From sequence record OQ626344: a DNA stretch of 64,000 nucleotides; one strand, 5' to 3'. This DNA comes from Escherichia phage S127 BCL3. Below the pieces are notes generated by a model. The model was not told where the DNA came from. It ran no database searches and saw only the letters and a list, made by a program, of their open reading frames with translations. Below are positions 12,707-13,006 of this stretch, in pieces; position 1 is the stretch's first letter; each line of letters starts with the position of its first letter. Both the position numbers and the translations under genes were made by a program.

Positions 12707-12999
12707 CCATGCCATTCGTTTGCATGAAAACAATTAACAAGCTAACAATTAACAAGTTAATAATCTTTCGCTGGCTATGCCAGGTGACTAGGTCACCCCT
12801 TCGGGCGTTTCTATGACATAATATAAAAGCAGGGCAACTATTAGAAGATCTATAGTTGCCTTGCTTGTTATGTCATGATTAACTAAATACAAGGCAACTA
12901 TGATCTGAGTAATAGATTGCAGAAAAACTATCACGGGGGTGATGGTTACTGCTTTTATATTATGTCGCGACTCCGTCGCGCCATGCCATTCGTTTGCAT
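12707..12999 (+). repeat. 19-bp perfect direct repeat CCATGCCATTCGTTTGCAT flanking a palindrome-rich segment
   Basis: Copies at 12707-12725 and 12981-12999. Confidence 0.85.
12815..12966. repeat. 18-bp perfect inverted repeat GACATAATATAAAAGCAG / CTGCTTTTATATTATGTC
   Basis: Arms at 12815-12832 and 12949-12966. Confidence 0.85.
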
Positions 13000-13006
13000 A
13001 GTTGCC
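12833..13006. repeat. GGCAACTAT 9-mer, four copies in alternating orientation
   Basis: Copies at 12833-12841 (+), 12852-12860 (-), 12893-12901 (+) and 12998-13006 (-). Confidence 0.8.

Follow-up and report, generated by a model that had tools for sequence, protein, structure and literature searches.

The window analysed here, a stretch of 64,000 nucleotides (nt) of Escherichia phage S127 BCL3 (record OQ626344; positions count from its first letter), contains a long interval without genes in which one short segment, rich in direct and inverted repeats, stands out at about 12706-13016. The phage is rV5-like (Vequintavirus, myoviruses of E. coli): 119 phage records match this region at 80-99% identity, all of them Vequintavirus. 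The segment holds a cluster of hairpins and predicted terminators just inside the left genome end that is as constrained as coding sequence and has counterparts in other genera. We tentatively read its conserved core as a terminator of transcription that would act in both directions. Eighteen of the records that matched positions 12300-13500 in a phage collection are titled “Campylobacter phage” and represent vequintaviruses of ~90% identity; A135, the only one of them that was opened, is marked UNVERIFIED and carries no annotation, and these host labels are probably wrong.

In rV5, the counterpart of the segment falls within a stretch of 2.6 kilobases (kb; 104013-106618) that the rV5 genome paper (2013) reported to be without open reading frames (ORFs) and drew as a “non-coding” box, offering no explanation; bidirectional terminators between genes 163 and 164 were predicted in the same paper. 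The box corresponds to ~11103-13661 of the window, with plus-strand genes to its left and minus-strand genes to its right. ORFs within it are interrupted by stops in relatives, and their variable sites show no periodicity when counted by codon position (15/20/17, 19/20/22 and 26/22/25), compared with 9/6/51 in a flanking gene. Broken ORFs and the lack of codon-position bias ruled out a protein-coding reading of the box. A search of the window found no transfer RNA (tRNA) or transfer-messenger RNA (tmRNA).

The physical ends of the genome could be placed inside this box. The first base of the Gotham, bov11CS3 (version 2) and ECP2309 records is the homologue of position 12108 in all three, and the first 459 nt of Gotham, annotated as repeat_region, are identical to its last 459 nt, with the copy ending at the homologue of 12566. 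Therefore, we assigned the direct terminal repeat (DTR) to 12108-12566. A terminal repeat of 459 base pairs (bp) has been described among vequintaviruses, and redundancies of 458 bp in two others. Circularly permuted genomes and headful packaging, the outcome of default PhageTerm runs, were given less weight, as they conflict with fixed repeats of 458-459 bp and with the common first base of the three records. The window thus displays the arrangement of a concatemer junction, in which the repeat-bounded element starts 140 bp to the right of the DTR, just inside the left virion end, and the conserved hairpin core lies ~250 bp inside the left terminal repeat. Many public vequintavirus records, that of rV5 included, were opened elsewhere and contain a single collapsed copy of the terminal repeat.

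An alignment of 20 relatives yielded the following anatomy, given from left to right:

12108-12566: DTR of the virion DNA, 459 bp, at the concatemer junction; placed from record starts and the Gotham repeat.
12567-12625, plus strand: short repeats TGACA(C/A/G), from the first base after the DTR onward; hypervariable among relatives.
12650-12698, plus strand: three tandem 15-nt iterons with the core (A/T)GTT(T/C)AC; ~2 to ~8 copies in relatives.
12706-12725, plus strand: direct repeat copy 1 (GCCATGCCATTCGTTTGCAT); in all examined relatives but V18, with a C-to-A variant in some.
12729-12764, plus strand: AT-rich 15-nt repeats, AACAATTAACAAG(C/T)T; ~1 to 4 or more copies among relatives.
12764-12811: optional GC-rich mini-insert with three small hairpins, among them GGTGAC-tag-GTCACC; outside the conserved core.
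12815-12832: left arm of an 18-bp inverted repeat (GACATAATATAAAAGCAG), which reads on the minus strand as the U-rich tail of the predicted terminator T(-); a homologous arm exists in Cronobacter phage CR3.
12812-12866, minus strand: predicted terminator T(-), consisting of hairpin 1 (arms 12827-12841 and 12852-12866, with two GGCAACTAT sites) followed by UUUUAUAUUAUGUC; fold of -19.9 kcal/mol, z = -4.8.
12884-12902: site 3 (TAAATACAAGGCAACTATG), 5' strand of a long-range helix; pairs with 12852-12863 or with 12997-13015.
12920-12966, plus strand: predicted terminator T(+), in which hairpin 2 (AACTATCAC-GGGG-GTGATGGTT, closed by CAG/CUG) precedes the right inverted-repeat arm, CUUUUAUAUUAUGUC (12949-12966); from a terminator scan, -12.4 kcal/mol.
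12966-12980: GC hairpin CGCGAC-tcc-GTCGCG.
12980-12999, plus strand: direct repeat copy 2; invariant in the 19 aligned relatives that retain the element.
12997-13015: site 4 (CATAGTTGCCTTATTGTTA), 3' strand of the long-range helix; kept in FV3.
13007-13130: conserved AT-rich stretch, the regional GC minimum (27%), with an imperfect 22-bp inverted repeat inside.

Hairpin 2 can also be written AACUAUCAC-GGGG-GUGAUGGUU, closed on the plus strand by the same CAG/CUG. The GC content of 27% applies to 13000-13100, just beyond repeat copy 2, and ATAGTTGCC stands between that copy and the AT-rich stretch. Additional iteron copies occur at 12342, 12485 (minus strand), 13158 and 13201; 7 of the 17 matches to the iteron core in the window lie within 900 bp.

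An earlier note on this DNA, written from the sequence by a model, had described a segment bounded by a 19-bp direct repeat and filled with nested palindromes. Every repeat and palindrome that it listed is present where it had been placed, and they are non-random. The direct repeat is real in both copies, its true length being that of the 20-mer GCCATGCCATTCGTTTGCAT (12706-12725 and 12980-12999), which has only these 2 matches in 64 kb even if 3 mismatches are allowed (0.02 expected by chance). The 18-bp inverted repeat (12815-12832 and 12949-12966) is perfect, and GGCAACTAT occurs four times in alternating orientation, at 12833 (+), 12852 (-), 12893 (+) and 12998 (-). No further copy of GGCAACTAT exists in the window; 0.43 copies would be expected, and none of 100 shuffles reached four. 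GGTGAC-tag-GTCACC (12783-12797), CGCGAC-tcc-GTCGCG (12966-12980) and the pair ATGACATAA and TTATGTCAT (12813-12821 and 12868-12876) could be read directly in the sequence. In the folding check that the note had proposed, 12800-13020 folded far better than its shuffles (z = -7.7 for the plus and -9.3 for the minus strand). The repeats do not delimit a natural functional unit, however, as conservation and pairing partners extend past copy 2 to ~13016. Similarly, the GGTGAC palindrome exists but belongs to a mini-insert of 44-48 nt that is missing from many relatives and lies outside the conserved core.

Seven genomes that cover all regions were used to compare variation along the locus. In the core (12812-13006), 6.7% of the sites are variable, compared with ~19% in the DTR and over most of the box; in the repeat arrays, the proportion rises to 63-75% (63% of the alignable sites in 12567-12705). 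In the neighbouring gene, 36% of the third and 4-6% of the first and second codon positions vary among the same genomes. The mean pairwise identity is 0.979 in the core vs 0.93-0.94 nearby. Only one block is more constrained, 11280-11560, which follows a promoter at 11243 and is the most conserved of the whole box (3.6% variable sites, mean identity 0.99); it contains no conserved ORF, and its RNA fold is ordinary (z = -0.6).

The mini-insert at 12764-12811 is missing from B9-1, ECP32, NHEP1, isim, SophiaRose and EPFV3, and CarlMeissner, Alma and both IMG/VR contigs have short remnants of it or none. Three relatives carry an extra 32-nt cassette after 12867. Both insertion points leave hairpin 1 and the flanking A/T tract intact. 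Such GC-rich cassettes (32-48 nt, with several mini-hairpins and a common GGCTATGC motif) are present or absent at differing points of the AT-rich region (12764-12811; L007:5794-5825; L037:1786-1820). They move, because in another genome an unaltered 44-mer of the first cassette lies in reverse orientation within an intergenic spacer, ~2 kb away (L005:1164-1207). Their behaviour resembles that of tiny hairpin cassettes that are mobile or copy-pasted.

Too few sites vary within the genus for covariation to be tested properly there, and the picture is mixed, with single changes breaking as many predicted pairs as are kept. Common polymorphisms sit in loops of the minus-strand fold, and single changes break several plus-strand pairs. 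In EPFV3, a T-to-C change converts a G.T pair of hairpin 1 to G-C. Among non-Watson-Crick pairs, ~6 are G.T on the plus strand (in hairpin 1, at 12867.12822, in hairpin 2 and in isim, EPFV3 and Phapecoctavirus variants) vs one C.A. This weakly suggests that folding takes place in the plus strand, in the form of RNA or of single-stranded DNA. An IMG/VR scan for GGCAACTAT-N-ATAGTTGCC returned 26 matches, 24 of which were unrelated chance palindromes.

The first gene inside the left end (13662-14081, minus strand) is the homologue of rV5 ORF164. It encodes 139 amino acids, and its product has ~90% protein identity in Phapecoctavirus, which belongs to another subfamily. In phAPEC8-like Phapecoctavirus, this homologue also adjoins an ORF-free, palindrome-rich region of 1.5 kb near the record start. 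These observations suggest a left-end module that is common to, or was exchanged between, Vequintavirus and Phapecoctavirus. The protein identity prompted an examination of the non-coding DNA at the ends of phAPEC8-like phages, phi92-like phages and CR3; in Certrevirus, Phapecoctavirus and Justusliebigvirus, homologues of parts of the core were recognised that show compensatory base changes. The phAPEC8 non-coding region has no similarity at the BLAST level; its homology emerged from the comparison of motifs and structure only.

The BME3 record ends with another copy of its first 342 nt, in agreement with the published repeat, and a perfect 15-bp inverted repeat (GCTAATAATAACGCA and TGCGTTATTATTAGC) lies 283 bp inward from this 342-bp repeat, enclosing nested hairpins that include AACTATC-ggt-GATAGTT. 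The phAPEC8-like phages read ...AATAATAAGCCA ... AACCATC-acc-GATGGTT ... TAGTTGGCTTATTATTAGC. These elements correspond to site 3, hairpin 2 and site 4 of the window; in Phapecoctavirus and Justusliebigvirus, it is the left inverted-repeat arm that is the homologue of site 3. The long-range helix occurs in the variants AAGGCA/TGCCTT, AACGCA/TGCGTT and AAGCCA/TGGCTT. Hairpin 2 is conserved in Stephanstirmvirinae, where one pair is T.G, T-A or C-G, and TAGTTG..TTATT of site 4 is conserved there too. CR3 has a perfect 18-bp inverted repeat (GACCAATAGAAAACAGGT and ACCTGTTTTCTATTGGTC) around GC hairpins; in the orientation of the window it aligns to the left arm, to the 3' half and tail of hairpin 2 and to the GC hairpin, with the tract kept as UUUUCUAUU. 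Its GC hairpin, CGCGCC-tac-GGCGCG, differs from that of the window by a compensatory change from A-T to C-G. In a nine-row alignment, 81.5% of the cells pair, compared with at most 54% if the partner is slid; three pairs have changed on both sides, and the covariation score was reached in none of 500 shuffles. The compensatory changes give modest support to the helices, as they come from three lineages only. Together with the strong constraint on the core, they bear out one suggestion of the earlier note, a highly structured nucleic acid, in that the helices have stayed complementary across genera.

The BME3 record (PP239276) contains its first 788 nt again at 146169-146956 and its first 342 nt at 147030-147371, hence three copies of the 342-bp repeat, which probably reflect assembly redundancy plus an appended repeat. 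For the same reason, the apparent presence of the BME3 element on both sides of the repeat was not used.

The lineages share a common design, in which an A-rich 5' arm is followed by a short GC closing stem, nested hairpins, the closing stem again and a T-rich 3' arm; the perfect repeat measures 18 bp in CR3 and 15 bp in BME3 and the phAPEC8-like phages. In every lineage, the 5' arm is the A-rich and the 3' arm the T-rich one, an orientation that could terminate transcription on both strands. In the window, the two arms of the inverted repeat represent the same 18-nt stem base plus U-tract (CUGCUUUUAUAUUAUGUC) on opposite strands, i.e., the tails of two convergent predicted terminators, whose transcripts would overlap by ~140 nt. 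On the minus strand, the stem of hairpin 1 is followed by the U-tract UUUUAUAUUAU; on the plus strand, CAG...CUG closes hairpin 2, followed by CUUUUAUAUUAU. Both strands thus present what is expected of intrinsic terminators, a stable stem-loop that includes G-C pairs (minus strand, -19.9 kcal/mol; plus strand, -12.4 kcal/mol) with a U-rich tract directly 3' of the stem. The records of Murica and Alma, two independent GenBank annotations, label hairpin 1 as a minus-strand terminator. In addition, the GGCAACTAT copies permit three alternative helices of similar length (1:2, 2:3 and 3:4).

On either side of the region, strong early sigma-70 promoters face it. The one at 11243-11270 is among the strongest sigma-70 promoters in 20 kb (TTGACA-16-TGxTAAAAT), lies past the last plus-strand gene and is directed toward the right genome end. 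We infer that transcripts enter the region and end there, and our favoured, though tentative, interpretation is that the conserved core at 12812-13016 constitutes a compound, bidirectional Rho-independent terminator or insulator between the terminal repeat and the converging early operons. This interpretation fits the location, the hairpin and U-tract on both strands, the design with an A-arm and a T-arm that four genera have in common, the points at which insertions are tolerated and the fact that the segment is dispensable in FV3 (see below). A leftward RNA polymerase that had passed the operon terminator at 13643-13624 would form hairpin 1 and release in UUUUAUAUUAU at ~12826-12818. A rightward polymerase could come from the 11243-11270 promoter, in which case the DNA must be concatemeric or circularised for the repeat to be crossed, or from any promoter that the repeat region contains. 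This polymerase would form hairpin 2 and release in the identical tail at ~12955-12962. Without the core, transcription of the two early gene blocks, which converge here, would run from each block into the other through the genome end or concatemer junction. The extra GGCAACTAT copies would provide alternative helices able to back up or modulate termination, and the 20-bp direct repeats, not needed for termination, would make the segment deletable.

Several observations weigh against termination as the function of the core. No convincing sigma-70 promoter feeds the element from nearby on either strand; the leftward early operon has a good terminator of its own at 13643-13624, 750 nt upstream, and transcripts from the rightward 11243 promoter must cross the terminal repeat. 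Ordinary terminators are rarely so conserved or so elaborate. The invariant pair of 20-mers, the GC hairpin after the plus-strand tail, the iteron arrays and the fixed distance from the DTR are left unexplained. Moreover, on the minus strand, where it is proposed to act, hairpin 1 contains an A.C mismatch, and the wobble pattern (~6 plus-strand G.T vs one C.A) favours folding of the plus strand. In CR3, the U-tract is adjoined by the long-range stem only and not directly by the hairpins. Finally, covariation within an inverted repeat cannot separate RNA hairpins from DNA hairpins or symmetric protein-binding sites.

The earlier note had also proposed that relatives be checked for an empty site with a single 19-mer, and one such site was found, in FV3. 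FV3 reads ...GATATGATAAG-CCATGACATTCGTTTGCAT-AGTTGCCTTATTG..., in which the flank to the left of copy 1 is joined through a single 19-mer to the flank to the right of copy 2. A search with this junction gave a contiguous match only in the two FV3 records, with 190-350 extra bases in every other listed record; FV3 is the 1 genome without the element among the 119 records. Since SYGMH1, which belongs to the same species, has the element and since the single hybrid copy of FV3 has the A variant that is elsewhere confined to copy 1, FV3 is, judging from these sequences, a derived deletion by recombination between the flanking 20-base repeats and no vacant target. Provided that the FV3 assembly is correct, a viable phage can do without the repeat-bounded segment, and its loss fits an accessory role better than that of an essential cis-acting site. 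V18 lacks the iterons and repeat copy 1 and has kept the core; its record (NC_041937; L034 ~2400-2530) is circular and ~7 kb shorter than those of its relatives, for which a natural deletion or an assembly collapse could account. One 20-mer, ATAGTTGCC and the AT-rich stretch are kept in every genome, FV3 and V18 included.

We regard the proposal of the earlier note that the segment is a small non-autonomous mobile insertion or a recombination or resolution site as very improbable. An insertion with a target-site duplication of 19-20 bp would account for the precisely empty FV3 site and for a core more uniform than its flanks, and small GC-rich cassettes do move in this region. Yet a duplication of 20 bp is unusually long for a transposition footprint, only FV3 (two records) is empty with SYGMH1, of the same species, filled, and the A variant is the expected leftover of a crossover between the two copies. 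The interior begins with GAAAACAATT and finishes with CCGTCGCG, which are not complementary, so there are no terminal inverted repeats abutting the direct repeats. The element was found at 120 places in the 119 records, always at the same locus and thus in one copy per genome, and its internal sequences have a pairing partner (site 4, 12997-13015) outside the repeats, with ancient homologues of parts of the interior in three other genera. With regard to site-specific recombination, the 20-bp repeats permit deletion in a trivial sense, and the repeat-to-repeat deletion of FV3 is the sole rearrangement seen at the locus, but nothing in the data points to a recombinase; annotations of relatives near the locus list only hypothetical proteins, and no protein-family search for a recombinase was made among the ORFs of the window. 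A DNA-level cis-acting element of genome-end biology, serving packaging, regeneration of the terminal repeat or the start of replication, appears possible but on the whole doubtful. The iterons, the pair of 20-mers, the GGCAACTAT sites and the palindromes might be bound by terminase or by some other protein of the phage, or might fold into hairpins as single-stranded DNA, and might thereby assist recognition of the concatemer junction or a replication start near the left end, with 13007-13130 unwinding. The location 140-450 bp from the DTR boundary, with the BME3 homologue ~283 bp from a 342-bp repeat, the tandem arrays of short direct repeats at the boundary and beside the element, the GC minimum of 27% just past repeat copy 2 and the 20-mer, ATAGTTGCC and AT-rich stretch in every genome would all suit such a role, for which the repeat- and palindrome-rich untranslated terminal-repeat boundary of T5 and the requirement of T7 for its pac site and terminal repeat set precedents. 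It is difficult to reconcile with the isolation of FV3, without the whole segment, and of V18, without iterons and copy 1, as viable phages, or with the hypervariability of the iteron and TGACAC arrays (63-75% variable sites), unusual for a recognition site. Furthermore, the long inverted-repeat arms lie 94-117 nt apart, unfavourable for cruciform extrusion in duplex DNA, and these phages have no known initiator or small terminase gene. The origin core suggested in the earlier note is possible for the surroundings, which have a cluster of directly repeated short sites as in iteron origins (15-nt period, ~2 to 8 copies, with additional copies on both sides) and an AT-rich stretch, although base composition by itself does not demonstrate unwinding. 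The repeat-bounded segment is dispensable in FV3, and for this segment and for the iterons a requirement in cis is contradicted by FV3 and V18, which lack them.

That the core encodes a stable structured small RNA of ~130 nt, an antisense gene pair or a riboregulator is, in our estimate, unlikely. Such an RNA might start at ~12829 from an extended -10 element on the plus strand (TGaCATAAT, 12814-12822) and consist of hairpin 1, a linker and the terminator hairpin 2, with helices 1:2, 2:3 and 3:4 as a switch. The constrained block starts exactly at this -10-like element and takes in the terminator tail, folding is exceptional with wobbles that are G.U on the plus strand, and the four GGCAACTAT segments form textbook 1:2, 2:3 and 3:4 helices of equal length; common polymorphisms at positions unpaired in the minus-strand fold also agree with a functional RNA. 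However, the -10-like element is not conserved in CR3 and has no -35 element in the window, the constraint runs ~50 nt past the terminator tail, and no gene lies downstream for a riboswitch or attenuator to control. Within the genus, variation is too low to test covariation properly, and predicted pairs are broken by single changes as often as they are preserved. No Rfam family matched at gathering score or with an E value below ~1; in the 64 kb there were 0 matches at gathering score, and the best sub-threshold ones were chance hits to microRNA hairpin models (21 bits vs a threshold of 70). A further interpretation, which we consider decidedly improbable, is a structured element (RNA or single-stranded DNA, plus strand) shared across subfamilies at the short-terminal-repeat ends of rV5-like and phAPEC8/phi92-like myoviruses. 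Through its mutually exclusive helices (GGCAACTAT 1:2, 2:3 and 3:4, together with the 18-bp repeat), the element would alternate between termination and read-through, coupling transcription across the junction to end processing, packaging or the start of replication, as a host-polymerase counterpart of the pause in T7.

Some further features accompany the genome ends. GGAGTGCTGCC occurs twice just left of the left DTR boundary (12063-12106), its second copy stopping 1 base short of the cut, and the core of GGAGTGCTGCC is found inverted (GCAGCACT) 24-31 nt before the right boundary (12535-12542). A search for a motif common to both DTR boundaries returned only the 8-mers AGTGCTGC and GCAGCACT, each at chance level; their placement at both cut sites suggests a candidate recognition motif. 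In four genera, Fur-box-like palindromes, GA(G/T)AATGATT(A/C)TCATT, occur in clusters within the terminal repeat or in non-coding DNA close to the terminus (window 12236-12272; L052:9866-10470; L051:50-270 and 1162-1236; L049:54-72). They reach 16 of 19 positions of the Fur consensus in CR3 and BME3 and 14 of 19 in the window. Fur boxes of the GAGAATGGTTATCATT type in the terminal repeat were rejected, as a single site reaches 14/19 in the region, a level met 7 times in 64 kb. In the C-rich unique non-coding region at the right end, CCTGAAGAG occurs four times (11466, 11880, 11915 and 11997; also at 10806), with two other copies elsewhere in the 64 kb.

The box, the terminal repeats and the label “terminator” on hairpin 1 are already public. 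We did not find described the placement of the element relative to the genome ends, its constraint, the reading as twin tails, the FV3 deletion or the homology in two subfamilies with compensatory changes. The rV5 “non-coding box” has been an annotation gap since 2013 in E. coli phages that are widely used in therapy and biocontrol, and the genome ends are now placed inside it. The features listed above offer concrete targets for mapping signals of packaging, replication and early transcription. For engineering, they indicate where genomes can be opened and what the FV3 deletion tolerates, bearing in mind that many public records are permuted relative to the true ends.

Among known systems, iteron origins such as lambda ori, plasmid origins and P4 ori/crr share with this locus tandem short direct repeats of uniform orientation, next to which lie palindromes and an AT-rich stretch, and the core (A/T)GTT(T/C)AC presumably resembles the P4 TGTTCACC iteron. 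In contrast to those origins, iteron number and sequence are hypervariable here, V18 lacks the iterons, FV3 lacks the palindromic core, and no initiator gene is known. For a DNA-level cis-acting element, the closest analogue would be the iss region of T5, or Repeat Region 3 (Davison, bioRxiv 10.1101/866236), a large untranslated region that adjoins the left terminal repeat at its inner boundary and holds nested palindromes along with direct and inverted repeats. Both are arrays of repeats and palindromes at an untranslated terminal-repeat boundary, in an order that is conserved among relatives with diverging coding regions, and the function of the T5 region is unproven. They have no sequence similarity, the terminal repeat has 459 bp here vs ~10 kb in T5, and no genes lie between the end and the element in our case; therefore, a pause in two-step injection would be purposeless. 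The paired DnaA boxes of T5 are also missing. No pair of TTWTNCACA sites was found; the best match, GTTTACACA at 12687-12695, is a single iteron that agrees at 8 of 9 positions and varies among relatives at position 7. DnaA boxes were therefore rejected as the defining feature of the iterons.

In T7, pausing of the polymerase at the concatemer junction, which is linked to packaging, starts maturation, and the pac site together with the terminal repeat is needed for packaging of phagemids. The locus described here resembles the T7 junction in its short terminal repeat with adjoining arrays of short direct repeats and in a predicted stop or pause of transcription beside the junction. T7 has SRL and SRR repeat arrays, and a hairpin end derived from a palindrome was proposed as a processing intermediate. 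By this analogy, a link of the predicted termination to packaging is conceivable. However, there is no sequence similarity, the vequintaviral element would act through host RNA polymerase and intrinsic terminators instead of T7 RNA polymerase and its class II signal, and the element can be deleted, as in FV3. Compared with the convergent or bidirectional Rho-independent terminators found between convergent operons, this locus has, instead of one compact hairpin, two separate ones whose identical 18-nt tails stand 116 nt apart, accompanied by competing helices, a GC hairpin and a 20-mer repeat, and the element is constrained like coding sequence across subfamilies and located 750 nt beyond the operon's own terminator. 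The similarities are that an A-tract and a T-tract flank the stem-loops, so that each strand reads a hairpin followed by a U-run, that such terminators are placed where opposed transcription units meet and that hairpin 1 has already been annotated twice as a terminator. If the element only terminates transcription, it would perform an ordinary function in an unusually elaborate and conserved form.

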